Assembly: GCA_030038445.1 (NCBI GenBank)
Contig: JASHOW010000025.1
Span: forward strand, 1,281-65,280
Length of the DNA: 64,000 bases
Reading direction: 5' to 3'
Origin: Nitrosopumilaceae archaeon
GTDB lineage: Archaea > Thermoproteota > Nitrososphaeria > Nitrososphaerales > Nitrosopumilaceae
The translations under genes were made by a program, and so were the position numbers. Shown here piece after piece: positions 7,633 to 42,257 of the stretch; within the stretch, counting starts at the first letter, position 1, and each line of letters starts with the position of its first letter. The notes beneath the pieces were generated by a model. It did no database searches. It was not told where the DNA came from and saw only the letters and a list, made by a program, of their open reading frames with translations.

Positions 7633-7717
7633 TAAAACCTGTGATCATGCATGCGAGATAACAGATTATTGACAAGTTTCGTTGACTAGACTAACAACAA
7701 TATTACTAACGCATGAA

Positions 7718-8782: not shown

Positions 8783-8870
8783 CTTATTCGATAGATACCA
8801 AATTACACCTACATATTAATTGTGATTCGCTCAGGCAGAGGATTTTATATCCCAGAATGAATTGTGACGT

Positions 8871-10527: not shown

Positions 10528-11660
10528 ATCCGTTCAAAATCATAAGAGCTAAGACTTTTTCCTTCAATTACTTTGGAACACATATTTTCAAATATTTCAA
10601 GTGCTTTTGGGGAATTAAGATCATCATCTAATGCAACAAGGAACTCGTCAAGTAATTTAGAAAGACTTGGATCTGTTTTATTAGATGTCATTGTATTTGT
10701 AAGATAGATTTTGTTCAGAAATGGCTTTTTTTCTGCAATTTGGCTTTCGGTAAAATTCACATCATCGCGATAATGTCTAGAGAACAAGTAAAGACGCAAT
10801 AGATTCTGGCCGTATTTTTGTACCAGATCTCTCGACCACACAACGTTTCCTATTGATTTGGACATCTTTTCGTCATTTGATAGAACTAGTCCCACATGCA
10901 TCCATATCTTAATTGGGTTCTCACATGTTGAAAGCATATTATACTGCGCAAGGTGTGCTTCATGATGCGGATACAAAAGCTCTCTTGCTCCTCCATGTAT
11001 GTCATAATTGATGCCAAAGTTCTCCAATGCAACCGTAGTATCCTGAATATGCCACCATGGGATCCCTTTTCCAAACTTGCTTGGCCACGAGAACTCAAAA
11101 TCTTCTGAACAGTTCCACAACATTATGTCTTCAGGATTCTTCTTGTTAGGTCCCATATCCAGCCTATGAAGTTGGAGTTGGTCTTTTGATTGTTTTGACA
11201 GCATGCCGTATGTTTTGATGTTAGATGTGTCAAGGTATACGTTTCCATTTGCGTAATATGCAACTTTTTGATCAAGCAAGTTGGAAATATGATTCTCTAT
11301 ATGGCAAACATAATCAGAGGCATAGGCAAGCCTGTTAATACTTTTTATATTAAGTAAGAGTAGGTCCTCAGCAAATTTGTTTGCATAAAACCTAGCAATG
11401 AAGGCATAATCTTTGGATTCTGTCCTTGCCTTGTTGAATACGTTCTGATTTATGTCTGTCATGTTTACCAACACATCAGTGGCATATCCTCTTTCATTCA
11501 GATGCCTGCATAGAAGATCATATGTCAGAAAGATCCTTGCGTGGCCAAGATGTGTGTAATCATACAAGGTAGGGCCACAAATGAATACCCTTACAAGATT
11601 TTTCTTGAATGGTTCAAAATTATCTTTATCAGACGAGAAAGAATTGAAGAGTTTGATCAT
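10500..11660 (-). CDS. Cysteinyl-tRNA synthetase-like (class I) paralog, short and with divergent active site
   Basis: CGPTLYD.THLGHAR and KMSKS are present; WHIQD replaces WHIEC, HHEAH replaces HHENE; only 386 aa. Confidence 0.8.
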   Translation of the reverse strand: MIKLFNSFSSDKDNFEPFKKNLVRVFICGPTLYDYTHLGHARIFLTYDLLCRHLNERGYATDVLVNMTDINQNVFNKARTESKDYAFIARFYANKFAEDLLLLNIKSINRLAYASDYVCHIENHISNLLDQKVAYYANGNVYLDTSNIKTYGMLSKQSKDQLQLHRLDMGPNKKNPEDIMLWNCSEDFEFSWPSKFGKGIPWWHIQDTTVALENFGINYDIHGGARELLYPHHEAHLAQYNMLSTCENPIKIWMHVGLVLSNDEKMSKSIGNVVWSRDLVQKYGQNLLRLYLFSRHYRDDVNFTESQIAEKKPFLNKIYLTNTMTSNKTDPSLSKLLDEFLVALDDDLNSPKALEIFENMCSKVIEGKSLSSYDFERICQVLGIEI

Positions 11661-11859
11661 GATTTACTTTGTAGCCCATGGTTTAAAAGATTGTAATTAT
11701 CAGTACGGCAGACTTCATTTCATATACAGTACGGCATGACAATTAGAAGAACCTGAGGTATATATCATATCTGTAAAATTCAGTTAAAATTAGATTATTA
11801 GATCTTGTCTTTAGATTCTGTTGTATTGCAGTGTATACTGACCAAGATTTATGTAAAAT

Positions 11860-12342
11860 ATGGGTTTTAAAAATATGATCAAAATTGAGACAAAGATGCA
11901 GATTGTTGCGTCTCAAGAGAAAGTTTGGAATATCATATCAAAGATAGATGATGACCCGCGTTATTGGAAAGGAATAACTTACATTAGAAACATATCAAAA
12001 AATCGAAATGTCATAACTCGCGAGGTATCACTAGCCAATGGTTCCAAGTGTAATCAAAGAATAACACTCTTTCCAAGAGAAGGGATTCACATACGATACA
12101 CCGGAGGCCCCATGGTAGGTATAAAAGACATTTTGCTAACTGGGATCGGCAATGTTACAATAATTGAAGTTCAGATAGACTGTAGGCTGTCAGGAGTTGT
12201 GCGCTTGATTCCAAAGAGCGTATTAGAAGAATTACAAACAGAATCTGAGTTTGCGTTACAGCTAATCAAAGAAGAGGCCGAAGGAATACCACGTGATATT
12301 TTGGTGAACAGGCAAGAAACTTTGGTGGATAGATCTAATTAA
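11860..12342 (+). CDS. SRPBCC / polyketide-cyclase-like protein
   Basis: N-terminal I.AS.EKVWNIIS.ID..P.YW pattern. Confidence 0.65.
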   Translation: MGFKNMIKIETKMQIVASQEKVWNIISKIDDDPRYWKGITYIRNISKNRNVITREVSLANGSKCNQRITLFPREGIHIRYTGGPMVGIKDILLTGIGNVTIIEVQIDCRLSGVVRLIPKSVLEELQTESEFALQLIKEEAEGIPRDILVNRQETLVDRSN

Positions 12343-13355
12343 TGACAAAAATACATAAGCTCACAGGCATTTTCAGTAAACCTCTGCGTGATGCAGGACC
12401 AACGTCAAAAATGTATAGCAGAGAGGGGATCAGGTGTCAGGTTGCGGGTTGCAAAGGAGGGCCTTTGATCACAGATGATTCAACTGGAGAGATAATCTGC
12501 GGCTTCTGTGGTTCCATATTGGTAGAAAGATTGATTGCTACAGATTTGGAGCGAACAAGGGATCCTGATGAGTTTTTGACCAAAACAAGGACTGGCCCCG
12601 GACAATCGCTGTCAATGTATGACATGGGTATAGCAACCATAATGTCAAACAAAGATGCAATGGGAAAATCCCTTTCAAGCGCTACAAAAAATACGTTTGA
12701 ACGCCTCAAGAGATTAGATAGTAGAAGCAAAACATCAACCAACAGAACACTAAGATCATCTTTGCTCCTACTTGATTTGCTTAAGACCAAACTTGCGATT
12801 CCTGATTCTACAGTAGAAAATGCAGCTTATATCTACAGAAAAGCCATGCAGAAAAAGATCACAATTGGACGAAGTGCAAAGAGCTTAATGTGCGCCTCAA
12901 TCTATGCAGCGTGTAGACAAGCTAGCATTCCAAGATCTATTCATGATATATCACAAGTAACCGGTATTGGTAGAAAAGAAATTAGCCGTGATTATAGGAA
13001 ATTGACTGAAGAACTCAGACTGGACCTAGACCATTGCAATGCGACTGAATTCGTGGCAAAAATTGCAACTGAAGTAAACATAAGCGAGCATATAAGAAGA
13101 GAATCTTTAATGATGCTTCAAAAACTATCAGACAAAGGATTGACCGATGGCAAGAATCCCATGGTTATGGCTGCATCCACATTATACCTGTGCTGCGTAC
13201 GAAATGGCGAATACAAGACACAAACCGAGATTGCAAGGGCAGCTGGAGTAACTGCTGTTTCTGTAAGAGCACGTTATCAAGCTTTGAAAAAAAATCTTGG
13301 GTTTGTCATGGATAATTTACCACACAGAATTGACAACAAAACAATGTTAAACTAG
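12342..13355 (+). CDS. tfb: Transcription initiation factor IIB paralog
   Basis: Zn ribbon (C..GEIICGFCG), cyclin repeats, GKNP, TQ.EIA.AAGVT.VSVR.RY. Confidence 0.92.
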   Translation: MTKIHKLTGIFSKPLRDAGPTSKMYSREGIRCQVAGCKGGPLITDDSTGEIICGFCGSILVERLIATDLERTRDPDEFLTKTRTGPGQSLSMYDMGIATIMSNKDAMGKSLSSATKNTFERLKRLDSRSKTSTNRTLRSSLLLLDLLKTKLAIPDSTVENAAYIYRKAMQKKITIGRSAKSLMCASIYAACRQASIPRSIHDISQVTGIGRKEISRDYRKLTEELRLDLDHCNATEFVAKIATEVNISEHIRRESLMMLQKLSDKGLTDGKNPMVMAASTLYLCCVRNGEYKTQTEIARAAGVTAVSVRARYQALKKNLGFVMDNLPHRIDNKTMLN

Positions 13356-13408
13356 GCGCGTATAACAAAGATGTAGATACTACCATGCATGATCATAATA
13401 ACAGTGAT

Positions 13409-13939
13409 TTATTCAGAAAATTCAAATGAGATTGTATTCTTGTCAGCTTTGATCAGTATTTTTTTATCAAAGACCTCTTGAAACATGAAATCCAGAATTG
13501 TCTTATGATATAACGACCAATTCTTTCCTATATCATGTTTCATGATATATGTATGAGATCCATTCTGCTGCGTATGGCTTACCTGTACAGACGAATTTAT
13601 CATTCTCATTTCAAACCATGACAAAAATGTCTCCAAGTCAAGCTTGCTTTTCATAAATAATGCAATGTCCTTTACTTCATTCTTACCAATTCTAGAAGCA
13701 ACGTCAATTATTTCTTCTTGCTTCATTTTACCAAAAATATGAATAAAAACTCGCTTGTTAATCATTACAAAACCAGATATTGGTTGGTACATATCCCATT
13801 CAAGGAATCGTCGCAATGCTTGGTTCACAAGTGTATTAGTGCTCACTTGTCTATGATTAGATTCTGCACGCAGTTTCTTTAGTATGTCATCGTCTAACCT
13901 AAATGTAATAGTAGACGTTTTCTTTGAAGTTTGGCTCAT
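13409..13939 (-). CDS. Ribbon-helix-helix DNA-binding protein (thaumarchaeal family)
   Basis: N-terminal TITFRLD...S.NTLVNQ.L RHH pattern. Confidence 0.65.
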   Translation of the reverse strand: MSQTSKKTSTITFRLDDDILKKLRAESNHRQVSTNTLVNQALRRFLEWDMYQPISGFVMINKRVFIHIFGKMKQEEIIDVASRIGKNEVKDIALFMKSKLDLETFLSWFEMRMINSSVQVSHTQQNGSHTYIMKHDIGKNWSLYHKTILDFMFQEVFDKKILIKADKNTISFEFSE

Positions 13940-14047
13940 GCCCCTAATTTATGATGGTACGTCTTTTAAGACTTGCAGACCAGAGTTACCTAATAAGAGA
14001 TAAGAGATTGAGGTATCTGGTTTAAAAGTATGTGTCAATTATGATAC

Positions 14048-14764
14048 TTGATGACCAATGAGATAATCGTCCGCGAGATCAAGCCAATCAATATAGAGGG
14101 AGGATACCTCATAGATGGATTTCCTTATGCAGGTTTGGCAAACGCAATAGCTACGGAATCTCTAATAAACACGACATCTCAGTTCGAGTTATCCGGCATA
14201 CTTGACTCAGATCTCTTTCCGCCAATTAGTATCATAAGGGACGAGGTTCCAAATTTTCCTGCTAGAATATTTGTCAATGAGGACCTCAAGGTAGCAATAT
14301 TTTCGTCGTATCTTACACCACATGAATCACTTCATAGAGAAGTTGCAAAAACCATGTTAAAGTGGGCAAATGACCACAAATGCTCCCTCATAGTAAGCAG
14401 TTCTGCAGTCAAGACTGAAGAAAAACCATTTGTGATAGGAGTTTCCAGTACCGAAGATGCAAAAAAGAGACTTGTTGACGCAGGCATACCCATACTCAGA
14501 AATGGAACCGTTCCTGGCATTCCCGGAATTTTGTTAAATGAAGGCGCTGTTACAAAGACCAATGTCATAGTACTCTTGTACAAAGGTCAAGAGACTGGGC
14601 CCGATTTTAGAGCAGGTGCAGAGATTTGCATGGCAATGTCCAAGATAGTTCCAGGCGCTTCATGTGATCTTCGAACCCTGATGAGTGAAGCAGAAAACAT
14701 AGAACAGAATCTAAAGCAGGCAGAACAAGAAGCTGGGCCACTACGAGATGCAATTTACGGATGA
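14048..14764 (+). CDS. PAC2-family proteasome assembly chaperone
   Basis: LIDGFP.AGL...IA, GIPG.LL, GPD.RA. Confidence 0.8.
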   Translation: MMTNEIIVREIKPINIEGGYLIDGFPYAGLANAIATESLINTTSQFELSGILDSDLFPPISIIRDEVPNFPARIFVNEDLKVAIFSSYLTPHESLHREVAKTMLKWANDHKCSLIVSSSAVKTEEKPFVIGVSSTEDAKKRLVDAGIPILRNGTVPGIPGILLNEGAVTKTNVIVLLYKGQETGPDFRAGAEICMAMSKIVPGASCDLRTLMSEAENIEQNLKQAEQEAGPLRDAIYG

Positions 14765-15009
14765 ATTACCAAGAGCGAGAGATCTCAAGAAATAGCCTTG
14801 AAAAGCACCTCAATGTGCTAGACTCTGACGAAGGAATAAGAATAGAAAACAAGCGAGGTTTTATCTTCATCAACAAAACCGCCAAGAGATACTGTGTAGA
14901 CATATCAGAGAACAACCATGAGGAATTTATTTACATGGCTAGCGTCAAGGAAGTCCTAAGTTTTTTATTAGATAAGATAGAGCACTCATCAAAGATTTTT
15001 TCATATTAG
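14761..15009 (+). CDS. Hypothetical protein
   Basis: ATGA overlap with the upstream gene; plausible 82 aa ORF. Confidence 0.55.
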   Translation: MNYQEREISRNSLEKHLNVLDSDEGIRIENKRGFIFINKTAKRYCVDISENNHEEFIYMASVKEVLSFLLDKIEHSSKIFSY

Positions 15010-15024
15010 GTAGACAATACATAG

Positions 15025-15642
15025 ATGACATCGATACTAGAATTTGCGTTAACAGTTATTATAATCTCAGCTTCTGGCGTCATGTCACCAGGACCACTCT
15101 TTGCTGCAAATGTCTCATATGGTACAAGACTTGGTTGGAAGTCAGGAATCAAGATTGCTTACGGACACACGGTAGTTGAACTTCCACTTGTCATACTTCT
15201 TGGTATTGGAGCAATCTCGCTTGTGACATTTCCGCAATTCAGAGAATACATATCCATTCTTGGTGCAATCAGCCTCTTTGCTTTTGCCGGACTCCAGATA
15301 AAAAATGTTTTACAAAGATCATCCACAGATCAGTTGCCAAAACATGGGCCATTTTTTATAGGTGTATTATTTAGTGCGCTTAATCCTTTTTTCTTGATTT
15401 GGTGGTTTACGGTAGGCTTCAAGTTAATTGCTGACGCATTGATACTTTATTCATTTATTGGAATCATCATAATGTTTGGATTTCACATATGGATGGACTA
15501 TGCTTGGCTTGGAACAGTAGGATTCTTATCCAATCGCGGAAAAGCCATACTCTCAACAAAAAACTATAAAATTGTCATGATAATATTGAGTGGAGTTCTA
15601 GTTTATTTTGGAATAGATTTCTTAATTGGAGCAGTCCACTAA
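15025..15642 (+). CDS. LysE-family translocator
   Basis: SGVMSPGP, GH..VE, LNPFF..WW; hydrophobic. Confidence 0.85.
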   Translation: MTSILEFALTVIIISASGVMSPGPLFAANVSYGTRLGWKSGIKIAYGHTVVELPLVILLGIGAISLVTFPQFREYISILGAISLFAFAGLQIKNVLQRSSTDQLPKHGPFFIGVLFSALNPFFLIWWFTVGFKLIADALILYSFIGIIIMFGFHIWMDYAWLGTVGFLSNRGKAILSTKNYKIVMIILSGVLVYFGIDFLIGAVH

Positions 15643-22573: not shown

Positions 22574-22888
22574 CTAGACAACGCCTACTTCATGTAGTGT
22601 AATTAGACCATTATCCCCAATAATCGCTTTGATTGCTGGCAATATAATTTCAATTTTTTTCAGCTCATCAATCACCTCTATTAATAATGGCATGTTAACT
22701 GATATTCCGTCTATCTGAAAATTGGATTTTCCACGTTTACCATATCCAGCTACTCCCGTCCATACTGTAGCTCCAGATATTTTTCCGTTCTTTAGAATAT
22801 CTAATACTAAGTTATGTACGCGTTTTCCATTGAAAGTGTCGTTGCGTTTGATTCGAATCACAAGCGACCACATTTCTAGAGTTCTCAT
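22574..22888 (-). CDS. DUF190 PII-like protein (usual CrcB partner)
   Basis: GATVW.G.AGYG, S..MPLLIEVID; ATGA overlap with crcB. Confidence 0.9.
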   Translation of the reverse strand: MRTLEMWSLVIRIKRNDTFNGKRVHNLVLDILKNGKISGATVWTGVAGYGKRGKSNFQIDGISVNMPLLIEVIDELKKIEIILPAIKAIIGDNGLITLHEVGVV

Positions 22889-23274
22889 CTAAATCCTCCT
22901 CCTAAGATTACGCTTACCAAAGTCTTGCCACCAAATATAGCGCCCAACGACAGCCCTACATTAGACAGTATATTAATTGCCACCATTAGGTATTGTTTAT
23001 TATCAATTAGGTTTGAGGCCTCAAGGGCAAATGAGGACATTGTGGTCAACCCTCCACAAAACCCTATTGCCACAAGTAATGCATATCGCTGATCAAGATT
23101 CCATTGTTGAGAGAAAACTGCAAAGGCTCCAAGAATAAAACTTCCAATGATATTTACCAACAGCACGTTTATAGAAAATGTTCCTAGTAAGAGTGGAGAT
23201 TTTGTTATGCCATACCGTAGAAAAACTCCCGATACTCCGCCAGCTGCAAGAAACAAGATTTCTATCATTTTCAT
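22885..23274 (-). CDS. crcB: Fluoride channel Fluc/CrcB
   Basis: GG..G..LRY, VN..GSF, GFCGGLTTMSSF; four TM helices. Confidence 0.95.
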   Translation of the reverse strand: MKMIEILFLAAGGVSGVFLRYGITKSPLLLGTFSINVLLVNIIGSFILGAFAVFSQQWNLDQRYALLVAIGFCGGLTTMSSFALEASNLIDNKQYLMVAINILSNVGLSLGAIFGGKTLVSVILGGGFR

Positions 23275-23939: not shown

Positions 23940-25493
23940 TCATATTGGAGACTTCTTAAGCGTTGTGTCAGTTTTTGCAGCTACAGGTCTATAACCTACA
24001 TACTTTTTCCTTCTCACGTGTTTAATGGTATATACGGCTGCCACCGCAACCGCAGCTGGTACAAAGAACAGAGGCATCAGCCAAAAATTCACATCACTAT
24101 TTCTTGCAGGCTCTACCATGGGCATATTCATGTCTGAGTTTGTACCGTTTCCAGGCTTAACTATGGTTGTAAACTGAACATCCTGACCACTATGTGCAAT
24201 GTCAGAAAAATCAAATGTTACGGGGCCAGGATTACTGAATGTAAAATACTGATATGCCCCACCAAACTGTGTAGACTCTTCGATGTGATAGAGTTGCTGT
24301 CCGCCCTGAGTAATAGTAAAGATATAGTGAGCTGGTATTGCCTCGTTTTGTATGTTGTCGTATATTTGGTAAATGAATATTATCTGCTGTCCGGTTGTAA
24401 TGTAATGCGGCTCCCAGTCAAGGTCCAACTCATATGCCCTATCAGGAGTGAATCGTACGACTGGAAACTTCATGATCTGATTTCCGAAAGCGTCAGTGGG
24501 TACAAGTGCTGCTGGTTGTACAATTACATATCCCTGCATCCATGGATGAATCTCACAGAAATACTCGAATGTTCCAGAACGTGTGAACTTTTGAGTCCAA
24601 GACCCTCCAATTGGAATGGTACCGCTGTCAAAGAGGCCATCGGGTTGTCCAACTCCATTGCCAAGAAGACCAGCCCTGCCTACAGAGTGACCGCTTGTTA
24701 CAGTATGGACCTCCTTGTCTTGATTTATCCAAGTTACATTCTGATTTACTCCAATTGTGATAACGGATGGTTCATACCACATGGGAGCAGCAGTATTGTA
24801 GTTTGGATCATATGCCCCATAGGGGATCGTAACTACCTGATTTGTTCCTTTAGGCGCATCTGATACTGCAATGCGTGCACTGTACTTCGCGCCAAGCGTT
24901 ATACTGAGTATCTCGTTTGGCCCCTTCCATTCAGCGGAGCTTATATCAGGAGGACCGGCGCCGTACAGCTGGATCTGAAAGTTGACTGGGCTTACGTTCT
25001 GAAGTGGGTCAGTCACCTGTATGTCTGTACCAGTGACTGCAACTGCAGTCTCGTTTGAGATTATCAAGACGCCGTTGCCTTCCATCTGTTGTGCCCTTAT
25101 CCCATAATTCTCATACGGAATCAGATTTCCATTCGAATCTGTAAATTTTATTTGCAATGCAAGTGACTGGTCTGCCTCTATTGGGGTCGATGTAATGGTA
25201 GCACGAACAGAACCGTCAGATGAGACTGCAGTTCCTTCAATCAGTTGGTGGCTGTTAGTTCCTTGCTGTGCTACTATCTGAGGGCTGTAATACCCTGTCT
25301 GTGCAAAGGCAGATTCCTGCACCAGATACAAACTAAACAGCATGACTATGATCACGCCTCCCAGAAGAGACCTCTTGAGGATCTCATTAGGTCTGACATG
25401 TACAAGCAGGCATAAACCTCTCAATAGACTAATATCATTCTCCCTACGATTTCTTTGTTTTTTGTTCATTGATATATCTACCCCCAATTCCAT
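23940..25493 (-). CDS. Membrane-anchored cupredoxin (plastocyanin-like) protein with N-terminal extension
   Basis: HTVTSG...FDSG...YFCEIHPWM; signal peptide preceded by ~40 extra aa; C-terminal TM. Alternative start at 25469. Confidence 0.85.
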   Translation of the reverse strand: MELGVDISMNKKQRNRRENDISLLRGLCLLVHVRPNEILKRSLLGGVIIVMLFSLYLVQESAFAQTGYYSPQIVAQQGTNSHQLIEGTAVSSDGSVRATITSTPIEADQSLALQIKFTDSNGNLIPYENYGIRAQQMEGNGVLIISNETAVAVTGTDIQVTDPLQNVSPVNFQIQLYGAGPPDISSAEWKGPNEILSITLGAKYSARIAVSDAPKGTNQVVTIPYGAYDPNYNTAAPMWYEPSVITIGVNQNVTWINQDKEVHTVTSGHSVGRAGLLGNGVGQPDGLFDSGTIPIGGSWTQKFTRSGTFEYFCEIHPWMQGYVIVQPAALVPTDAFGNQIMKFPVVRFTPDRAYELDLDWEPHYITTGQQIIFIYQIYDNIQNEAIPAHYIFTITQGGQQLYHIEESTQFGGAYQYFTFSNPGPVTFDFSDIAHSGQDVQFTTIVKPGNGTNSDMNMPMVEPARNSDVNFWLMPLFFVPAAVAVAAVYTIKHVRRKKYVGYRPVAAKTDTTLKKSPI

Positions 25494-25496
25494 TAG

Positions 25497-25558
25497 GTAG
25501 ACATTATTAGCGCCTTCTGGAGCAGTTTAGGAATCATTCCACGGCTAATGTCATAGCC
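25497..25558 (-). ncRNA. Fluoride (crcB) riboswitch aptamer, copy 1
   Basis: Minus strand GGCTATGACATTAGCC...TAAACTGC...GCTAATAATGTCTAC; P1, P2 and the GACATT/AATGTC pseudoknot match the crcB consensus. Confidence 0.9.
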
Positions 25559-25766
25559 TACAGCTTTTCCATCTATGTATCTACTATTAAGGATTTTCAT
25601 GATCCGTTTTTCGACACTTTCTTTACTAACATTAGACAGACAAAGAGGAGTAAAGATACGTGTTTGTTTTCTATCTTGAGTATGAGATCATACAACATAG
25701 AAAAACAATGCTGCAAAAATAAAGAAAAATAAATTATTCAAATTTAAATGAAAACATGTGTTAGAA

Positions 25767-32367: not shown

Positions 32368-32793
32368 TTGAGCATAATGCCCGTACAGAAGATAATGATA
32401 GGATATGATGGTTCTGAATCATCCGAACGTGCATTAGAGTTAGCTATAGATTTGGCAAAACAATGTGATGCTGAGATACACCTTGTATTTGTAGTTAATG
32501 AACCAACAGGTATGATGAATCCCATTCCTGATGAAGTGTACCAATCTCTTGTAAATATTGGAGAGAGGACCCTGCTAAATGCGATACAACAGGTAAAAAA
32601 ACAGTTTTTAAAATACATAACACATTTAGAGACTGGTAACTCTGGAGAGAAATTATTAGAGCTCGCAGACGAGATTAAGCCAGATTTGATAATAATTGGT
32701 GCCATCAAGCATTCATCTTCTGAGAAATTACTTGGTACAGTCTCATCTCATTTCTTAAAATCTAGAAAACACCCTATTCTTTTAGTACCGTAA
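32368..32793 (+). CDS. Universal stress protein (UspA family)
   Basis: KIMIGYDGSE.S.RAL, DLIIIG, LLGTVS, PILLV. Confidence 0.9.
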   Translation: MSIMPVQKIMIGYDGSESSERALELAIDLAKQCDAEIHLVFVVNEPTGMMNPIPDEVYQSLVNIGERTLLNAIQQVKKQFLKYITHLETGNSGEKLLELADEIKPDLIIIGAIKHSSSEKLLGTVSSHFLKSRKHPILLVP

Positions 32794-32795
32794 AA

Positions 32796-34832
32796 CTACA
32801 TTATCACAAAAAAAGTATACAGCATGACAAAAATGAATGCTACCATAATGTAGATAAGATATACAAATAACTTGCCTGGCATTATCTTTCTGGCAGCATG
32901 ATATGAGAGAGAAAGAGCATATTTTGTCAGTAGGTCATAAAGTTTTTTGAAAACATCCAAAACTTCTAGTTCTACGATGTATTCTTCTGGAGAAAGAATC
33001 ACAGGACGGCGAATGGCACCTACTTGTATTATCCTCTCTTTTGTCCTAAATAGAAAACTTAGCATGATTCTGATCGGAGTACTATAACCAAATGAGTTGT
33101 ATAATTCAAAAGTACTGGTTGGTTGGTTCTGCCCACTAAACCATCCATATGTTTTTCTTATCTTCCATTTTGCGCCCCACCGCGTTATGGCATATGGTAT
33201 AACTAAAAGACATAACATGAAGATTGCTACAAATGTAGGAGAGAAGCCTCCAAATGGACTTCCAGATAAGATTACAAAATGTGCCGGAATTCCCAAGAGA
33301 CCAGTAACAAAGATATCAAACGTTTTTTCTCGCAAGATCTGGTTTGCGCCGCTTGATGCAAGAAGAAATATTCCTGGTGCCAAAACTCCCAATGCGATTA
33401 TAAGAATTAGAAAATAGTACGAGCTTGCGCGTATGATCGGCATCTTCTTGATGTTGTTATTACCATTAGATTCAACCATCCCGGATAACAATACTCCAAA
33501 TCCATACACCTTTGTCATCGCTATAATTACTACTCCAGTAGCCAGAGCCACTATTGCTCCAATTATAGTGCCAACAATTTGGCTAGTAGTGTCGCCAAAT
33601 CTAAACGATTGAAATAATGACTCTAGTATCATCCATTCAGAAACAAACCCTGCAAGTGGTGGAACTGCTGCCAGTGAAAGTATGGTAGCCATCCCTGCCA
33701 GATATGTACCATCTTTTGCTGCCTTTGTTGAAGATCGATTGTTAAGATCAAAACTCTCTTTGAGTTTACTTTTCCACCCCATTATGAGGAATAACGAAGC
33801 TTTTGAAATAGAGTGAGAAAAGGCATGATATAGTGCTGCAATAAGAGCAAACCCACTGAGTAATGGCAGATTATAATATGACGCTAGTATATAGACGCCT
33901 ACTGCTACTATAATTAGTCCATTATTTTCTATTGTACTATACGCTGGTAGACCCTTAGAATGTTCTGATACGGAAGCAAAAAGAGCCCCCAATAACGCAG
34001 AGATTCCACCAATAACAAGTGTAATCCAACCCCACCACAGTTCGGAGTGGCCAAGATGTGACAAGATGTTGATGTAGCCATAAACACCCATGAGCGTCAG
34101 AGTAGCAGAGAGGATTGCAGATGCATTAGATGGAGCATTAGAGTGAGCGATTGGCAGCCATTCACTCATATGAAATGGCGCAATCCCCATCTTCAGTCCA
34201 AACCCTACAAGAGATGCAACAAATATCCATGAGAGGGTAATTTCACTTGCATGAATCGTGGAAGTCGAAAGAAAGTTAAAACTGCCTACTGATGAAAACA
34301 TGCCCACAAATGCTAGCATGACAAAAACTGTACTTGCTTCTCCAAAACCTAGAAAGAGAAAGGCAGCTTTTCGTATTACATCAGGTTTGCCTCTTCCTTG
34401 TAGGATCATGAAAAATGCACTTATGGTCATAGATTCCCAACCCACTAGGAATGAAATTGCATCACCTGCCAGAATTATAATCACCATAGAAAACATTGTA
34501 AGAACAAGTAATGACGATAATCCATTAGGATAGTCATCATATCGTAATGAGTACAGACATGTTCCAAACCATACAAGGCAAGAAATGAGCAGGAACAAAG
34601 AATTGAATGGAGTTAACAAAAATTCAAATGAGCTATTTTGTGTTACCTGCCACAAGACAAGATCAATTCTGTTAGCACCACCAAGCAACATCCATAATGA
34701 AAGAGATATCCCAAGTGCAGAACCTATTGTTCCCAATACATAACAAAAGATCTTTGAAATGCGTCCAATAGCAACAGCTGTGGCAAATGATACAAAGACT
34801 CCAAAAAGAATGATGACGGGTAGATAATCCAA
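32796..34832 (-). CDS. hyfB: HyfB/NuoL-like proton-translocating membrane subunit
   Basis: GWESM, K.G..PFH..WLP.AH..APS, AYSTIEN, PPL.GFVSEW. Confidence 0.85.
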   Translation of the reverse strand: MDYLPVIILFGVFVSFATAVAIGRISKIFCYVLGTIGSALGISLSLWMLLGGANRIDLVLWQVTQNSSFEFLLTPFNSLFLLISCLVWFGTCLYSLRYDDYPNGLSSLLVLTMFSMVIIILAGDAISFLVGWESMTISAFFMILQGRGKPDVIRKAAFLFLGFGEASTVFVMLAFVGMFSSVGSFNFLSTSTIHASEITLSWIFVASLVGFGLKMGIAPFHMSEWLPIAHSNAPSNASAILSATLTLMGVYGYINILSHLGHSELWWGWITLVIGGISALLGALFASVSEHSKGLPAYSTIENNGLIIVAVGVYILASYYNLPLLSGFALIAALYHAFSHSISKASLFLIMGWKSKLKESFDLNNRSSTKAAKDGTYLAGMATILSLAAVPPLAGFVSEWMILESLFQSFRFGDTTSQIVGTIIGAIVALATGVVIIAMTKVYGFGVLLSGMVESNGNNNIKKMPIIRASSYYFLILIIALGVLAPGIFLLASSGANQILREKTFDIFVTGLLGIPAHFVILSGSPFGGFSPTFVAIFMLCLLVIPYAITRWGAKWKIRKTYGWFSGQNQPTSTFELYNSFGYSTPIRIMLSFLFRTKERIIQVGAIRRPVILSPEEYIVELEVLDVFKKLYDLLTKYALSLSYHAARKIMPGKLFVYLIYIMVAFIFVMLYTFFVIM

Positions 34833-34836
34833 GGAT

Positions 34837-35619
34837 CTAAGTTTCTCCTTTTGATTTTATCATGTCTGTCTCCTGTCCTTTTACACATCTGTCCATGCAT
34901 AGTAACAAGCCCTCTAAGATCTGAATAGGAGTAGGCGGACAACCTGGAACAATTACATCTGTTGGTATCACATCTTGTACTGGGGAAACAAAACTTTCAG
35001 TGTCTTTGAATACTCCCCCGCTAATAGCACATGCTCCAATTGAAATCACAAATTTTGGCTCTGGCATGCTTTCGTAGGTTTGTTTCAAGACGTTTGTCAT
35101 GGCTTTATTTAATGCACCCACAACAACAAGTACATCTGCGTGTTTGGGTGAATTAGTAAAAAAGATCCCCAGTCTTGTCAGGTCATAATATGGATTAGCA
35201 AGATTTAGTACCTCAATGTTGCATGCATTACACGAACCTACATCTATCATCAAAATGTGAAATGATTTCTGAAATGTTTTTGCCTTTGTCTTAAAGGCGG
35301 CATAGAGGTCTTTATTTGCATCTTTATTTTGCAAGATTTTTGCCTGTAGTGCAGTTTTCCTAGATTTTGTACCATCCTCAAAGAAAAATGAGGCGTCAGA
35401 GCAACGCCTACAGTATATACATTTTCCAAGATCTATATTTGCCTCGTTTTCTATTGCTCCAGTAGGACACAGTTCTTTACCTACGGTCCAATTTGATTCC
35501 TGTACAGAAGTGGGTGGGACAGATTTTAGCGGTATCTCTTCTGGGGTTGGTTCCTTCTTAGGATATTTGGTAGTCAGTATTCCATTTTTAATTCCATGTA
35601 GAACCCAGAACTTGACCAA
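34837..35619 (-). CDS. Fused 4Fe-4S (HyfH/NuoI-like) and small subunit (HyfI/NuoB-like)
   Basis: CPTGAI, CIYCRRC, GSCNAC..E, GACA.SGG, PGCPP. Confidence 0.85.
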   Translation of the reverse strand: MVKFWVLHGIKNGILTTKYPKKEPTPEEIPLKSVPPTSVQESNWTVGKELCPTGAIENEANIDLGKCIYCRRCSDASFFFEDGTKSRKTALQAKILQNKDANKDLYAAFKTKAKTFQKSFHILMIDVGSCNACNIEVLNLANPYYDLTRLGIFFTNSPKHADVLVVVGALNKAMTNVLKQTYESMPEPKFVISIGACAISGGVFKDTESFVSPVQDVIPTDVIVPGCPPTPIQILEGLLLCMDRCVKGQETDMIKSKGET

Positions 35620-35628
35620 TTTTTCACC

Positions 35629-36966
35629 TCACCGATCCGAATCCGCATATGAAAGGCCATAACTTTCATACGCAAATTGAAAGTCGGTAAACACGTTACC
35701 CTCCAAACTCTTTGCAAGTGGTAACCAGTTGACTAGGGAAGATGGCCTCATGTGTAGTAATTTAATTCGACCTGTTTTATCTATCTGAACTGCATGAATT
35801 AGATCGCCACTTGGACTTTCAATTCTACAGAATGAAAAAGATGCTTGTTCATCATATCGCTCGGAAGAAACATCCAGTTTGCTTGGTGCATGACCATCAA
35901 CTGGCATCTTGTCCAAGAGTTGTTCTAATAGGAATACACTAGACTGGATTTCGTGAATTCTAACCATCGTCCTAGCCATGGTGTCCCCTTCTTCATCAGT
36001 CTTTAAATCTACAAAGACATCATTGTATGGCTCTATAGGATACGTCAGCCTATCATCCCATTCTATTGCTGAAGCTCGTGCGGACGGACCAACAGCTCCC
36101 ATTTTTAACGCATCTTGATTTGATAATCTTGCAGTATTTTGTAACCTATCTAGAAATATTCTAGAAGAAAGAAAATAAGTTACAAGATTAGAAAACTTGT
36201 TTGTTATTTCTTTGATCTCGTTTAAAAGTGATCTTCTCTCTTCCTTTGAGAGAAGATTGTGAGAGACGCCACCGACTCTGTTAAATCCAAATAGATACCT
36301 ATGACCAAAATATTTTGCATTAATTCGAAGTACTCTCTCTTTTAACACATGTGTTTCAGCAGCCGAGACATTTTGAGTAGCAGCCTCAGACAGGCGACCA
36401 AAGACATGCAGGTGGTTGTAGATTCTTTCTAGTTCAATTGCTATGGCTCTAATCCATTTCGACCTTGAGGGCACTTCCAGATTCAAAATAGTTTCCACTG
36501 CTGTTACAAAACATGTCGAGTATGATGCAGAAAAATTTCCAGCGGATCTTTCTATTAAAAGTAATGCATCATTAGGCTGCATTCCAATTACTTTTCTTTC
36601 GATTCCTCGTTTTTTGAAATTGATTTGTGGTATGATTTTGACAATGCGTTCACCGTACGTTATTAATTTAAATCCTCCAGATTCTGGTACTCCAGAGCTT
36701 ACTGGGCCATAGGGAAAAGCAAAGATTCCATACCCTTCGACTTTTCCTCCCATATCGAGGTCTATCTGATGTCCAGGCTGTACATCTTTAAGGAATATTT
36801 CTGATTCTTCACCAAGTCTGAGAGGAATATCACTTAGGATTGTTTTTCTGTTTTCAATATCTGATAGTAATGCCAGTGTCCTTCCATCTATTTCAAATAT
36901 AGATGAGATTTGGACATTAGTGTTGATCTCGGCAACTTGTTTTTGTATAACAAAATTAGGAATCAT
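35629..36966 (-). CDS. Hydrogenase large-subunit homolog (HyfG/HycE/NuoD-like) lacking Ni-binding cysteines (Ehr type)
   Basis: GPV..G..E, ELERIYNHL, E.P.G; L1 site reads ERSAGNFS and L2 site reads YGLSYADSDR. Confidence 0.85.
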   Translation of the reverse strand: MIPNFVIQKQVAEINTNVQISSIFEIDGRTLALLSDIENRKTILSDIPLRLGEESEIFLKDVQPGHQIDLDMGGKVEGYGIFAFPYGPVSSGVPESGGFKLITYGERIVKIIPQINFKKRGIERKVIGMQPNDALLLIERSAGNFSASYSTCFVTAVETILNLEVPSRSKWIRAIAIELERIYNHLHVFGRLSEAATQNVSAAETHVLKERVLRINAKYFGHRYLFGFNRVGGVSHNLLSKEERRSLLNEIKEITNKFSNLVTYFLSSRIFLDRLQNTARLSNQDALKMGAVGPSARASAIEWDDRLTYPIEPYNDVFVDLKTDEEGDTMARTMVRIHEIQSSVFLLEQLLDKMPVDGHAPSKLDVSSERYDEQASFSFCRIESPSGDLIHAVQIDKTGRIKLLHMRPSSLVNWLPLAKSLEGNVFTDFQFAYESYGLSYADSDR

Positions 36967-36983
36967 TTTGCACTCTCCATTTT

Positions 36984-38456
36984 TTATTTCATTCCTGATA
37001 CAGCATGGAGAAATATAGGAAACATGTAAATCCCAATCACTAAAGATATGCCAAGATTTATCATAGGAATCAAAATAGAAAGTCGATTTTCTTTTTTAGG
37101 TTTTGAAATCGACTTCCCTTCATAGTCATGAACAGACAATGTGGAATTTTGAGAAGATTCTTCTGTAGATACGTTAGTCTGTTGACCAAAGACCATCAAA
37201 GTTGTCTGCCTATTCAGGCCAATGAAGGCGTAGATATAGATGACGGCAAGAATTATTGTTAATAGAAAATTTCCAGACAACATTGCTTGCGACATGATCA
37301 TGAATTCACCTAAGAAGACGCCGAAGGGTGGAGCTCCTGTAACTGACAGACAAGAGAGAGTGAAAAGATATCCTGTAGATTTCAGTCTATGAATAACACC
37401 TTGGATATCACTCATTTTTGTAGTATTGTACTCAGCAACCATATTTCCAGAAGAATAGAAAGCAGCAGACTTGGCAAAAGCGTGAGATACTATCTGAATA
37501 ATTGCTCCAAGAATCCCAATTCCTCCAAGCGCAATACCAACTAGGATTATTCCCATATTTTCCATGCTTGAATATGCTAACATTCTTTTGTAGTTTCGCT
37601 GATGTCCAATTATTATTGCGGCAATTAGAGATGTCATGACACCAAAGCCTATCACTAAATTTTGCAGATCAGCAAATGTAGTGGTTCCTTGTAAGAGAAC
37701 AAACGTTCTACTAAAGGCATAAAGTGAAGTTGGTAGAAGAACAGCCGAGAACATGGCGCTGATTGGCGACGGTGCTTCGCTATGTGCATCTGGGAGCCAT
37801 GCATGCATTGGCGCAATTCCTGCCTTTGTGCCATACCCCACAAGCGCAAATCCGACTGCCATAGACATGATCATTAGGTTTTTTGGTGGCTGGTGCAATA
37901 ATGTAGAAAATTGCAATGTTCCCTGAGAAGAGAATACAAATATGACAGATAGGAGAGATATCACAAGCCCAGCTGAAACTATCAGTGTATACCTCCATGC
38001 TGCCTCTATACTTGTTCGTTCCCTCTCAAGTGCTATCAGCAGAGCGCTGGTAACAGTGGTTGCCTCTACTGCAAGCCAGACAAAGCCCAGATCATTTACT
38101 GTAACGGCAAGAAGCATAGTAAAGGCAAAAAGATTCATCAGGCAATAATACCACCTAAATCGAAGAAAGGATTCTTTTATTCTCTTCAGGTAAAAGATAG
38201 AATATGCAACTGACGTTAGAAAAATAGCAGATATCGTTATTGACATTATCCTAGTCAAGCCATCAACATAGAAGTAACCGTACGTTCCAGAAGGTTCTGA
38301 AATTAATATGATAAGAGAGGCAGTAACAGATATGGCAGCCATGACAAGCGAAGATACCATTTCCACGCCTTTCTTAGGTAATAATGAAATTAACGCTCCA
38401 GATAATGGAGCTCCTAATAATATTAAAAGTAAAAATTCAGGTCCCATCTCAACCAC
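36984..38456 (-). CDS. hyfF: HyfF/NuoN-like membrane subunit
   Basis: EATT..SA, EAAWRY, GYGTK.G.APMH.WLPDAHSEAP, KRMLAYSS.E. Confidence 0.88.
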   Translation of the reverse strand: MVEMGPEFLLLILLGAPLSGALISLLPKKGVEMVSSLVMAAISVTASLIILISEPSGTYGYFYVDGLTRIMSITISAIFLTSVAYSIFYLKRIKESFLRFRWYYCLMNLFAFTMLLAVTVNDLGFVWLAVEATTVTSALLIALERERTSIEAAWRYTLIVSAGLVISLLSVIFVFSSQGTLQFSTLLHQPPKNLMIMSMAVGFALVGYGTKAGIAPMHAWLPDAHSEAPSPISAMFSAVLLPTSLYAFSRTFVLLQGTTTFADLQNLVIGFGVMTSLIAAIIIGHQRNYKRMLAYSSMENMGIILVGIALGGIGILGAIIQIVSHAFAKSAAFYSSGNMVAEYNTTKMSDIQGVIHRLKSTGYLFTLSCLSVTGAPPFGVFLGEFMIMSQAMLSGNFLLTIILAVIYIYAFIGLNRQTTLMVFGQQTNVSTEESSQNSTLSVHDYEGKSISKPKKENRLSILIPMINLGISLVIGIYMFPIFLHAVSGMK

Positions 38457-39108
38457 TCAACTGATCCAGATCCGATGGTTCTAGTGTTTTGAATGCATCT
38501 CTTTGCGCAGAAAGAATAACGCCGATGATCACAACTCCCATCACATCAAGCACTACAGCAAATTCCGTTAAGAGCTGTATTCCTGGGGCAATCAAAGCTC
38601 CCATATACAAAATACCATTTTCTTCTTGTATGTATCCGCACATTTGTGTAAGCGAGTTTTTTCTTGTAATAATCAGAAGAAATCCGAGTAAAAGAAGAAC
38701 GAATGGAATCGATATTTCAGGATTTGAAAAATATGGCAACACAACAGATTTGAATATAGCATATCCAATTATGATGATGATAATGCCTGTCAATACAAGT
38801 GACGGAGTTTTCTGGCTTGTACCAGTTTCTCTAAGCTTATGTCTGAAGTGTTTTACTTGGTAGAGCATAACTAACGGAAACACAATGCCACGCATGACTC
38901 CTGTTATAATAGCAAGGTAGAGGAGATTCAGATCGTCTGTGTGTAAAAACAAAATAACTATGAGTGCAGTAATTAGTAGGGATTGGATTGCTATGGCACG
39001 TATTGTTGGATCTACAAAGGATTGACCTTGCATATAGAGACTAGACAGGAGTACAGATATTCCTAGAAAACCTACTATTTCCTCGTAAAATGGAACTACA
39101 AAGACCAA
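38449..39108 (-). CDS. hyfE: HyfE-like membrane subunit
   Basis: Seven TM helices, Q..GY..EENG, E..V.LD. Confidence 0.8.
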   Translation of the reverse strand: MVFVVPFYEEIVGFLGISVLLSSLYMQGQSFVDPTIRAIAIQSLLITALIVILFLHTDDLNLLYLAIITGVMRGIVFPLVMLYQVKHFRHKLRETGTSQKTPSLVLTGIIIIIIGYAIFKSVVLPYFSNPEISIPFVLLLLGFLLIITRKNSLTQMCGYIQEENGILYMGALIAPGIQLLTEFAVVLDVMGVVIIGVILSAQRDAFKTLEPSDLDQLSG

Positions 39109-39109
39109 T

Positions 39110-40075
39110 TTACGTCACTTTTCCTCCTAAAAATAGCGCAAGAATGGAAAGTAATGCTAAACTAAAGGAAATTGAGAGAAAATCCAATATTTTGAAGAGG
39201 CGCAGCTTGGCAAATGTTTCTTCTATTATAACTATAATAACAATCAGGGCAAGCAGTTTAAAAAACAGGGTACCAACTGAATAAAGTGCGCCAGTTACAC
39301 TTACATCCCCAGACATCCACCAGGGAATAACGAATACATTAAGAAACACAGCCATCAAAAGAAATTGTTTCATGTATCCTCCCCATCTTGATATGGCAAG
39401 CAGTTTGCCGGAATATTCTATTACCTTCGCATCATCTATCATGCCAAATTCTACAAGACCTGAGCTTTCTACTGGGAGTCTTCCTGTTTCAACTAAGATT
39501 AGCATGAAGAAGGCAGCCATAACAAGGATATGAGTAGCAGAAAGATACCAAGAGGCAGAACTTGCCAATAGATTGTTTGTCGTATACGGATTGTTTGTAC
39601 CTGTAATCATGGCAACTGCAATGAAGATCATGATTAGTGTTGGTTCCGCCAATGCGGTAAATGAAGCGCTACGGCTTGCGCCCATTGTTGAATAATTAGT
39701 ACGAGCATCTATTGCGGCTATAATACTAATTACACCTGCAAACCCAAACATGAGAGCTCCTCCAAGTAGATCCAACAATATACCATATGGAAGAGGATAT
39801 GGTGTCACGATAGGAACTACTAGAGAGATTACTAGATATGCCACAAATGAAACTAGGGGAGCTATGACAAAGAACGATGATGATTTTTCAGGTACAACAA
39901 CTTCTTTTCTTAGAAGTTTAGATAGATCATAATACGGTTGAAAGATTGATGGGCCATGTTTGGATTCAATCATGGATTTTAAACGATTTATGATTCCAGC
40001 AATTAAAGGAGAAAGAAACAACACTGTACCAATTTGAATTATATTTATCAGTTGAAGCGTGATTGGGTCACTCAT
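39110..40075 (-). CDS. hyfC: HyfC/HycD/NuoH-like membrane subunit
   Basis: GPSIFQPYYDL.KL..KE, GASR, ETGRLPV, EYSG. Confidence 0.88.
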   Translation of the reverse strand: MSDPITLQLINIIQIGTVLFLSPLIAGIINRLKSMIESKHGPSIFQPYYDLSKLLRKEVVVPEKSSSFFVIAPLVSFVAYLVISLVVPIVTPYPLPYGILLDLLGGALMFGFAGVISIIAAIDARTNYSTMGASRSASFTALAEPTLIMIFIAVAMITGTNNPYTTNNLLASSASWYLSATHILVMAAFFMLILVETGRLPVESSGLVEFGMIDDAKVIEYSGKLLAISRWGGYMKQFLLMAVFLNVFVIPWWMSGDVSVTGALYSVGTLFFKLLALIVIIVIIEETFAKLRLFKILDFLSISFSLALLSILALFLGGKVT

Positions 40076-40257
40076 TTTTTGTCACCTTTTTTAAAAGAAT
40101 GATTTATTCTATATGCGACAATATATTTTGAAGTAGGTTGCTCAATAATAAAATCATCGTATATTGAATTCAATCTCTCGTTATAATCCAATATACTATA
40201 GTCAAGCATCCATGTCTCCAGTATTTTTTGATTTTGGTTCACTTTTGATCTTTCCAC
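40072..40257 (-). CDS. Riboswitch leader ORF (61 aa) coupled to hyfC
   Basis: GTG start 5 nt after the aptamer; ATGA overlap with hyfC. Confidence 0.5.
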   Translation of the reverse strand: MERSKVNQNQKILETWMLDYSILDYNERLNSIYDDFIIEQPTSKYIVAYRINHSFKKGDKK

Positions 40258-40262
40258 TATCT

Positions 40263-40322
40263 GGAGACATTATCATCCCTTTAGGGCAGTTTAGACGTAT
40301 AGTCAAGGCGAATGTCATCGCC
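40263..40322 (-). ncRNA. Fluoride riboswitch aptamer, copy 4
   Basis: GGCGATGACATTCGCC...TAAACTGCCCTAAAGGGATGATAATGTCTCC; canonical GGCG/CGCC P1. Confidence 0.88.
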
Positions 40323-40542
40323 CTATTGAATTAGTAATGGTGCCTAGCTAAGATTAAAAATGTTGCTCTGAAAGAATTCATTAACTAATCTGATCCTATT
40401 TGTCATTCATCCTTGTTTAAGTATATAACTCATTTTTCTCATAAGGTACGAAAGGTTTTCCGGCGATTTTATCCGCGTCCATATCACACATAACTCTCAG
40501 ATTTAAAAGATAGATTTAACATGTTGTAAACCAACTTTAGTA

Positions 40543-40890
40543 GTGTATTTTATGACTAATGACCCAAATGTTTTAAAGAACCAGACAAAAATGTGGCGTC
40601 TTTTGATCCAGTTTAGGAAAACCGATAAGATTGGAGATGCATTATTAAGAACCGAGTTGATGGCATTATTCAAAAAAGCTGACATATCTGGTGCAACCGA
40701 ATGGTCTGGAATAGGCGGGTATGGTAAACATGGAAAATACTACCAACAACAAGAAGGAATATCAATGGATGCTCCAATGATGTTAGAAGTAATTGACGAA
40801 GTTTCTAAGATCAAGATAATTTTACCAATGCTCAAGGATATTGTAAATGATCATGGATTGATTAGTATCCACGAAGTCATTGTAGTTTAA
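40543..40890 (+). CDS. Second DUF190 PII-like protein
   Basis: ISGAT.W.G.GGYG, S.DAPMMLEVID. Confidence 0.85.
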   Translation: MYFMTNDPNVLKNQTKMWRLLIQFRKTDKIGDALLRTELMALFKKADISGATEWSGIGGYGKHGKYYQQQEGISMDAPMMLEVIDEVSKIKIILPMLKDIVNDHGLISIHEVIVV

Positions 40891-41623: not shown

Positions 41624-41764
41624 TTATTGTTTGGCATATTGATCAAGGTTGAAAATACTTTCAGAACCGCAGCTTGGGCAATTCCACACTATCCTAGTTC
41701 CTATATACTTTGAATATACAACGCCACAATGTGCACATACTCTAAGGCTACTGGTCTTAACCAT
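41624..41764 (-). CDS. Small Zn-ribbon protein (46 aa, not in the ORF track)
   Basis: MVKTSSLRVCAHCGVVYSKYIGTRIVWNCPSCGSESIFNLDQYAKQ*; overlaps the ferredoxin stop. Confidence 0.65.
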   Translation of the reverse strand: MVKTSSLRVCAHCGVVYSKYIGTRIVWNCPSCGSESIFNLDQYAKQ

Positions 41765-42257
41765 CTTTGTATGCCTCTGCTGCTTTTTTATGAACTTCTA
41801 AATTAGCTTGGTCTACCTTGATTGCCTGTGTTGGACACACTGTAACACATGCCATACACCATATACAGTCGTGTTCTCTTACGGGCTCTGATTTATCAGT
41901 AAAATCTTTACGCTCATCTCTTACACAGCTACCTGTTCCAGCGCTAGTACCATTGATCATCTGTTCTGCAGGAATATCATTTTCTGTTCTGTACCACTGA
42001 TAGACCTGAACAGGGCATACATCTATACAACCTCCATCTGCAATACATGAATCCCAATCAACTGCTACAGAAGTACCATGCACACCCAAAGGAACAAGCC
42101 GTTCTCCCCTTTTTTCATAGTCAGCCATTACCTTAGGTTCGGAAGCCGCCTCTGCTTCTTTTCCAGGGCCCCAAACAAAATAGAAATTTTTTCCATTATC
42201 ATTATTGCGTTTCCCTATCACACGATAATTATCTGGAAATTTTAGATCAATTGGCAT
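41757..42257 (-). CDS. Dicluster ferredoxin (thaumarchaeal type)
   Basis: CIADGGCIDVCP and CIWCMACVTVCP. Confidence 0.9.
   Translation of the reverse strand: MPIDLKFPDNYRVIGKRNNDNGKNFYFVWGPGKEAEAASEPKVMADYEKRGERLVPLGVHGTSVAVDWDSCIADGGCIDVCPVQVYQWYRTENDIPAEQMINGTSAGTGSCVRDERKDFTDKSEPVREHDCIWCMACVTVCPTQAIKVDQANLEVHKKAAEAYKDG

Follow-up and report, generated by a model that had tools for sequence, protein, structure and literature searches.

A fluoride riboswitch-associated operon for a hydrogenase-related complex that lacks NiFe ligands in a Nitrosopumilaceae archaeon

A six-gene operon downstream of a fluoride aptamer

We analysed a 64,000-nucleotide (nt) stretch of contig JASHOW010000025.1 from a Nitrosopumilaceae archaeon (the whole stretch is referred to here as the window), focusing on a six-gene operon on the minus strand (32796-40075) that encodes a hydrogenase-related membrane complex and lies directly downstream of a fluoride aptamer. 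The genes are arranged in the order C-E-F-large-small-B, with intergenic gaps or overlaps of 1-17 nt. The first encodes a HyfC/NuoH-like membrane subunit of 321 amino acids (aa) (39110..40075; PF00146, E-value 6.5e-32), which has the conserved charged residues common to NuoH and HyfC. It is followed by a HyfE-like membrane subunit of 219 aa (38449..39108), 25% identical to Escherichia coli HyfE (E-value 7e-10) and matching the NCBIfam model "hydrogenase 4 membrane subunit" below its curated cut-off (E-value 1.9e-19), and by a HyfF-like antiporter-type subunit of 490 aa (36984..38456; PF00361, E-value 1.7e-49). The large subunit (445 aa; 35629..36966; PF00346 and PF00374) has the fold of NuoD and [NiFe]-hydrogenases without the NiFe ligands, and the small subunit (260 aa; 34837..35619) joins a NuoB-like domain (PF01058, E-value 2.6e-29) to a cysteine-rich N-terminal extension. 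The last gene encodes a HyfB-like antiporter-type subunit of 678 aa (32796..34832; PF00361), which also matches the NCBIfam model "hydrogenase 4 subunit B" below the curated cut-off (E-value 1.5e-114).

The aptamer (crcB motif; 40257..40331, minus strand) scored 38.5 bits against Rfam RF01734 (gathering score 34; E-value 4e-7 over the window). It has a P1 stem GGCG/CGCC, an intact P2, a pseudoknot GACAU/AUGUC and an extra linker hairpin GAC/GUC. Judged on its sequence, the element upstream of hyfC is a genuine fluoride riboswitch. The open reading frames, family matches and aptamer agree with an earlier interpretation of the window (the sequence-only reading), which had placed this six-gene order behind a riboswitch.

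The large subunit lacks the NiFe site and the small subunit retains cluster ligands

Ehr (energy-converting-hydrogenase-related) complexes were reportedly described by Marreiros, Batista and Pereira in 2013. They occur in ammonia-oxidising archaea (PMC10432482; PMC6349859), and a 2023 review lists them in Nitrosotalea, Nitrososphaera and Nitrosocosmicus, with their function unknown (PMC10432482).

The solved chains closest to the large subunit are Pyrococcus furiosus MbhL (6cfw; E-value 3.6e-39) and E. coli HycE (7z0s; E-value 3.6e-30). Alignment to MbhL, HycE and HyfG places A142, F145, S439 and D442 at the positions of the NiFe-binding cysteines. The corresponding motifs, ERSAGNFS and GLSYADSDR, contain no CxxC, as the sequence-only reading had noted. 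In 73 relatives the same four positions hold A/C/V/S, F/V/Y/L, S/V/A/L and E/D, and no member has all four cysteines. The hydrogenase-type glutamate E95 is kept and is invariant among relatives, and conservation is strong across the whole subunit, including many polar residues that do not vary. The quinone-site histidine and tyrosine of E. coli NuoCD, which we take to be H224 and Y273, are both absent, with P94 and G143 at the aligned positions. When the large-subunit profile was used as a query, only 21 of the best 150 representatives (clustered at 50% identity) had the four cysteines, the first of them at rank 35; by this measure, the sequence space nearest to the large subunit is mostly NiFe-less.

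The large subunit is the sole match to the NiFeSe_Hases family in the genome, and an ordinary NuoD is encoded on another contig. The earlier observation that the window has no hyp genes holds genome-wide for HypD, HypC and HypA, none of which was found in the assembly (89.7% complete; the search did not extend to HypB, HypE, HypF or the protease). The residues at the ligand positions identify the operon product as an Ehr-type complex that would be unable to bind NiFe and could not make hydrogen. Together with the 38.5-bit aptamer, the missing ligands uphold the earlier proposal of a NiFe-less Ehr-type complex under a fluoride riboswitch.

The names given to such genes suggest another enzyme. 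Weinberg et al. (2010) listed "formate hydrogen lyase" among the genes associated with the crcB motif (PMC2864571), and a 2024 review repeats this association and reads it as fermentative metabolism (PMC11139923). JGI and NCBI annotations likewise use the names "Ni,Fe-hydrogenase III large subunit" and "formate hydrogenlyase", and NCBIfam Hyf models are the best matches, though below their cut-offs. Against a true formate hydrogenlyase (FHL) or hydrogenase-4 stand the loss of all four NiFe cysteines, the failure to find the three Hyp genes, and an operon without HyfA, HyfD, HyfH, HyfJ, a protease or a formate dehydrogenase. Neither a formate dehydrogenase partner nor a HyfA/HycB-type input, HyfD, HyfH or HyfJ occurs among the annotated neighbours in the window. 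We rule this identity out on the ligand positions and the Hyp genes not found, and regard its chance of being correct as negligible. The published fermentative reading (PMC11139923) may need correction, as the sequences argue against hydrogen production.

In the small subunit, eight of eight cysteines are invariant in all 74 family members: four that correspond to the proximal [4Fe-4S] cluster and four in an N-terminal CP...CxxCxxC motif. HyfI has cysteines at the positions of C130, C133, C197 and C227, as does NuoB at three of them, and the N-terminal motif weakly matches the cluster motif of E. coli HyfH. As read from these motifs, the small subunit retains the cysteines needed to bind two [4Fe-4S] clusters in a short chain.

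Both antiporter-type subunits keep the residues of ion-translocating homologues

The HyfF-like residues E131, K211, K329 and E384, which correspond to the key positions of NuoL/M/N, are invariant in 61 relatives, as are E133, K214, K344 and E399 of the HyfB-like subunit in 63 relatives. Both subunits have thus kept the glutamate of transmembrane helix (TM) 5, the lysines of TM7 and TM11 and the glutamate of TM12 in every relative. The invariance of the iron-sulphur (FeS) and antiporter residues points to purifying selection, from which we infer that the complex is active; it is probably still a redox-linked ion translocator. The same residues are consistent with the redox-driven ion pump proposed in the sequence-only reading as far as redox-linked translocation is concerned; the physiological role that it attached to the pump is something that we, too, can only infer.

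A redox-independent, Mrp-like cation/proton antiporter would also have two antiporter-like subunits with intact glutamate and lysine residues. It would exchange Na+ (or K+) for H+ under fluoride stress, with the hydrophilic arm left as a structural relic. The operon has no donor module, and Na+/H+ antiporters are the next commonest cargo of fluoride riboswitches after exporters (PMC11139923), both of which suit such a function. However, eight FeS cysteines that are invariant in 74/74 members, together with a conserved large subunit, are hard to square with a relic, and equivalents of MrpB, C, E, F and G are missing from the operon. We consider a redox-independent antiporter unlikely, and a redox-linked translocator remains our preferred interpretation of the complex.

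A predicted translational ON switch with a leader reading frame

The predicted expression platform (40212..40270, minus strand) was read from the sequence and its minimum-energy fold. Every base of the 3' strand of the pseudoknot, AUGUCUCCAG (40270-40261), can pair with CUGGAGACAU (40221-40212), and the resulting 10-bp helix appears in the minimum-energy fold. CUGGAGACAU holds a Shine-Dalgarno-like GGAG located 6 nt before an in-frame AUG at 40209. This AUG begins a leader open reading frame (ORF) of 45 codons (40072..40209, minus strand; open from a GTG at 40257) whose TGA stop overlaps the hyfC ATG (ATGA, 40075-40072) and which has no match in Pfam or NCBIfam.

These features suggest that the platform is a translational ON switch. 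When fluoride is absent, the 3' strand of the aptamer pseudoknot would pair with the downstream GGAG/AUG region and hide it. When fluoride is present, the pseudoknot would form, the 45-codon leader would be translated, and ribosomes that pass the leader would reach hyfC via the overlapping stop and start codons. In a congener, the corresponding operon (locus L009) combines an analogous sequestering hairpin with a 48-codon leader that is unrelated to that of the window but likewise overlaps the start of hyfC. That an unrelated leader has the same overlap suggests that the leader probably serves translational coupling. In a Thermoplasmata locus (L028), a hairpin covers a GGAG directly before the hyfC AUG (z-score -5.5, for that fragment alone).

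The aptamer-operon pairing occurs in archaea and a bacterium

A search of species-representative genomes with the large-subunit profile yielded 75 loci: around 20 of Nitrososphaerota type, around 50 from Thermoplasmata, two from Archaeoglobaceae, one from a Methanobacteriota bin and one from the bacterium Mesoaciditoga. Wherever a locus is long enough to show it, the gene order is C-E-F-large-small-B. Upstream aptamers were counted with a covariance model (R2) built from 36 related aptamers. It replaced both a model built from the eight aptamers of the window (R1), which was too narrow and found L009 only, and a hand-written regular expression that missed Thermoplasmata variants.

Among the 54 loci that include the 5' end of the operon, and with the aptamer required to end within about 160 nt upstream of hyfC, 44 have an aptamer directly upstream of hyfC. 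These comprise 38/38 loci in Thermoplasmata, 2/2 in Archaeoglobaceae, the Methanobacteriota bin, Mesoaciditoga and 2/12 in Nitrososphaerota (L009 and L022, with the window not counted). The pairing spans four phylum-level lineages, one of them bacterial. Five aptamer-less Nitrososphaerota loci were searched again for degenerate aptamers with filters off, and none was found. An Rfam search of the genomes gave at most five RF01734 matches per Thermoplasmata genome, mostly one to three, which indicates that the pairing is not explained by chance. Most or even all of the aptamers detected in a Thermoplasmata genome are, in many cases, at the Ehr locus.

In the alignment of 36 aptamers, P1 and the pseudoknot covary strongly (94% of cells paired, and 100% in the pseudoknot). 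Columns 14 and 70, the positions that follow GGCG and precede (A/G)AUGA, respectively, show perfect covariation, with A-U in 14 sequences and G-C in 22. The G-C form precedes Thermoplasmata Ehr operons (e.g., L028:6783-6855) and mostly scores 22-36 bits, which suggests that the Rfam gathering threshold misses most of these aptamers.

Neighbouring genes

A universal stress protein (Usp) gene (32368..32793, plus strand; PF00582, E-value 7.9e-23) is convergent with hyfB and ends 2 nt from the hyfB stop. In 50 related loci from Nitrososphaerota and Thermoplasmata, a Usp homologue is likewise placed in convergence with the operon, and Usp is probably a partner of the Ehr complex. In Thermoplasmata, the Usp position is usually taken by two genes of around 150 aa behind a fluoride aptamer of their own; in the pair at L028:13963-14898, only the second gene is Usp-like. 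On the other side of the operon, a DUF190 (PII-like) gene (40543-40890), additional to the one at 22574-22888, is divergent from the Ehr promoter region and has no crcB beside it; DUF190 is usually the partner of crcB. TFIIB is also encoded in the window, which marks its source as archaeal.

A 2x[4Fe-4S] ferredoxin (41757..42257, minus strand; Fer4 families) is encoded in the neighbouring riboswitch unit and is a candidate electron donor. The operon also has a ferredoxin homologue as its neighbour in L009 (66%), where a divergent aptamer precedes it, and in Nitrosocosmicus (L010; 62%). We looked for a ferredoxin beside the Thermoplasmata operons and did not find one. We rejected a ferredoxin partner conserved across the clade, as a motif scan recovered flanking ferredoxin-type ORFs in only 3/75 loci (L009, L015 and L024) and tblastn with the window ferredoxin recovered homologues in L009 and L010 only.

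This ferredoxin, with its own aptamer, would also suit the complex running in the opposite direction. Ech-type enzymes are reversible, so the proton gradient of an acidophile could be used to reduce ferredoxin, or the complex could bypass a fluoride-sensitive, phosphoryl-transfer-dependent step of energy metabolism; enolase and a HAD phosphatase are encoded in the same island. Proton influx would, however, aggravate the acid load brought by HF, and the lack of a ferredoxin neighbour in Thermoplasmata also counts against such a role. We therefore regard reverse or metabolic operation as improbable and retain outward ion translocation as the preferred direction.

The operon was probably acquired from within Nitrososphaerota

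In the large-subunit tree, which agrees with taxonomy, the window and L009 are sisters and adjoin Nitrosocosmicus and Nitrosopolaris within a Nitrososphaerota clade (Shimodaira-Hasegawa-like approximate likelihood ratio test, SH-aLRT, 99). Thermoplasmata are grouped in a clade of their own (SH-aLRT 100). We reject transfer from Thermoplasmata on this topology, which lends no support to an origin in another phylum, and the earlier suggestion that the operon was acquired from other acidophiles does not stand as worded. An orthologue was found in only 1/200 other sampled genomes of the window's family (27 genera), the congener that carries L009. The operon is therefore accessory here. It was probably acquired, but from within Nitrososphaerota, and the likely source of any transfer is another ammonia oxidiser among the archaea.

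The Ehr aptamers of the window and L009 have the pseudoknot typical of the genus (GACAU/AUGUC), not that of Thermoplasmata (GGCGU/ACGCC). The operon may thus have joined the fluoride regulon locally and independently of Thermoplasmata, although an AT-rich composition could mimic the genus-type pseudoknot.

A different NiFe-less type is carried instead by 11/24 congeners. Its large subunit is around 545 aa long and has the motifs ERISGDES and SLDLSYSGND, its gene order is B-C-E-F-large-small, and no fluoride aptamer was found nearby. One such operon, in congener G064 (L098, G064:C1:570500-588500, genes at around 7456-15027), encodes a large subunit of 544 aa. This second type was not found in the window's genome. 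Our tallies for congeners include three unpublished genomes (G061, G062 and G069), each with one aptamer and without an orthologue of the large subunit; our conclusions do not rest on them.

The fluoride island and candidate exporters

All eight RF01734 matches in the 1.49-Mb assembly are located on this contig, on the minus strand, within a 21-kb island (25491-46435). The fluoride island also holds crcB, DUF190, enolase, HAD phosphatase, MFS and Usp genes. The one crcB-DUF190 pair of the genome (22574-23274) consists of crcB at 22885-23274 and DUF190 at 22574-22888. The aptamer at 25491-25567 is followed by genes for a 517-aa membrane protein with a cupredoxin domain and an 83-aa helix-turn-helix protein, then crcB and DUF190. 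L009's genome has seven aptamers, and the other sampled congeners have zero to three. That the two congeners with the operon have seven or eight aptamers, versus zero to three in the other species sampled, suggests that the operon may mark adaptation to fluoride-rich acid soils.

CrcB was detected in only 3/50 genomes that carry this Ehr clade and not found in the other 47, 33 of which gave RF01734 matches (E-value <= 0.001). All 12 CLC proteins that we inspected belong to the ordinary GREGP type, and none is encoded on an aptamer-carrying contig. This scarcity of known exporters, along with the concentration of Thermoplasmata aptamers at the Ehr locus, raises the question of whether the complex itself is a redox-driven extruder of F- or HF that replaces Fluc and CLC-F where these are missing. 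The antiporter-like subunits retain the lysine and glutamate pattern of cation/proton transport, the window's own genome has crcB, the genomes are incomplete metagenome bins, and export could be the task of MFS or unannotated membrane proteins encoded downstream of other aptamers. Direct extrusion is, in our judgement, quite unlikely, and we continue to favour a cation pump. A broader proposal is that this one Ehr clade provides a core redox-driven fluoride defence, a third type of resistance, in archaea without Fluc/CrcB and CLC-F, and that it was perhaps recruited to fluoride riboswitches more than once. We offer it as a doubtful, speculative extension.

Other genes were observed behind aptamers. 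Proteins of 232, 281 and 389 aa are encoded directly behind aptamers at L028:20144-20842, L034:10096-10941 and L100:311-1480, respectively. They have no Pfam match and are possible fluoride-response or export proteins. In G064, an aptamer is followed by a 389-aa gene, crcB and DUF190. A canonical aptamer in L028 (15018-19976; also in L029, L049, L062 and L072) precedes genes for a dynamin-like GTPase and two MutS-domain-V proteins in Thermoplasmata, and this unit may underlie the association with "mutS" that is described for the riboswitch.

A fluoride-induced pump as the favoured explanation

The explanation that we favour, to which we give about an even chance, is that the complex is a fluoride-induced, FeS-dependent cation pump that offsets the proton load brought in by HF and helps to energise fluoride export. 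We read the complex as a descendant of group-4 energy-converting hydrogenases in which the NiFe site was lost. It would oxidise a low-potential donor, possibly the neighbouring ferredoxin, and the energy of this oxidation would drive expulsion of H+ or Na+. When the external pH is low, such expulsion would relieve the cell of the acid that HF carries in. It would also rebuild the membrane potential needed for fluoride to leave through the CrcB channel, whose gene is 9.5 kb from the operon. Fluoride toxicity is greatest at low pH. Fluoride stress acidifies the cytoplasm (PMC11139923).

Several points weigh against this explanation. The hydrogenase ligands and the quinone-site histidine and tyrosine are both absent, so no acceptor chemistry can be named. 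The ferredoxin neighbour is restricted to the Nitrosotalea-like and Nitrosocosmicus branch. As 10/12 Nitrososphaerota operons are without an aptamer, the complex also has a role outside fluoride control. The role of GGAG as a Shine-Dalgarno site in this archaeon is an assumption. Whereas the conserved machinery and its regulation are either shown or soundly predicted, we postulate the donor and acceptor, the direction in which ions flow and the benefit to the cell.

Fluoride riboswitches had already been linked to "formate hydrogen lyase" genes (PMC2864571, PMC11139923), and Ehr complexes were known from ammonia-oxidising archaea (PMC10432482). We found no paper that joins the fluoride riboswitch to Ehr in a search that left most subscription journals outside its reach. 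What is new here is an instance from an archaeal ammonia-oxidiser of acid soil with a leader-ORF platform, which sharpens a testable hypothesis. A ligand-specific riboswitch before one Ehr clade, in four phylum-level lineages, tells us when the cell needs the complex, so that an orphan function becomes testable.

Comparison with known systems

Compared with Ehr complexes as previously described, the operon shares homologues of group-4 large and small subunits, NuoH-like and antiporter-like subunits and the absence of the NiFe-binding cysteines. This clade differs in having its own gene order (C-E-F-large-small-B), a short large subunit of 445 aa with A/F/S/D at the cysteine positions, a small subunit fused to an extra FeS motif, a convergent Usp gene and, usually, a fluoride riboswitch. 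Like other members of the RF01734 regulon, it has a genuine aptamer in the 5' leader of a Hyf-like operon. The cargo described in the literature is a fermentative FHL, whereas the complex here would bind no NiFe and has no formate dehydrogenase, and its platform is predicted to use a coupled leader ORF.

The nearest solved relatives are E. coli hydrogenase-4 (HyfABCDEFGHIJ) and FHL-1 (PDB 7Z0S) and P. furiosus Mbh (6CFW); the operon has equivalents of HyfB, HyfC, HyfE and HyfF as well as of the large and small subunits. Unlike these, the operon has no NiFe site, HyfA, HyfD, HyfJ, separate HyfH or protease, and its gene order is different. With complex I (NDH-1) it shares modules of NuoB, NuoD, NuoH and NuoL/M/N type, as well as an aspartate at the last cysteine position as in NuoCD; it differs in lacking the quinone-site histidine and tyrosine and equivalents of NuoA, NuoJ and NuoE/F/G. 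The Mrp antiporter has seven subunits (MrpA-G), of which only the MrpA/D-like (PF00361) type is represented in the complex described here.

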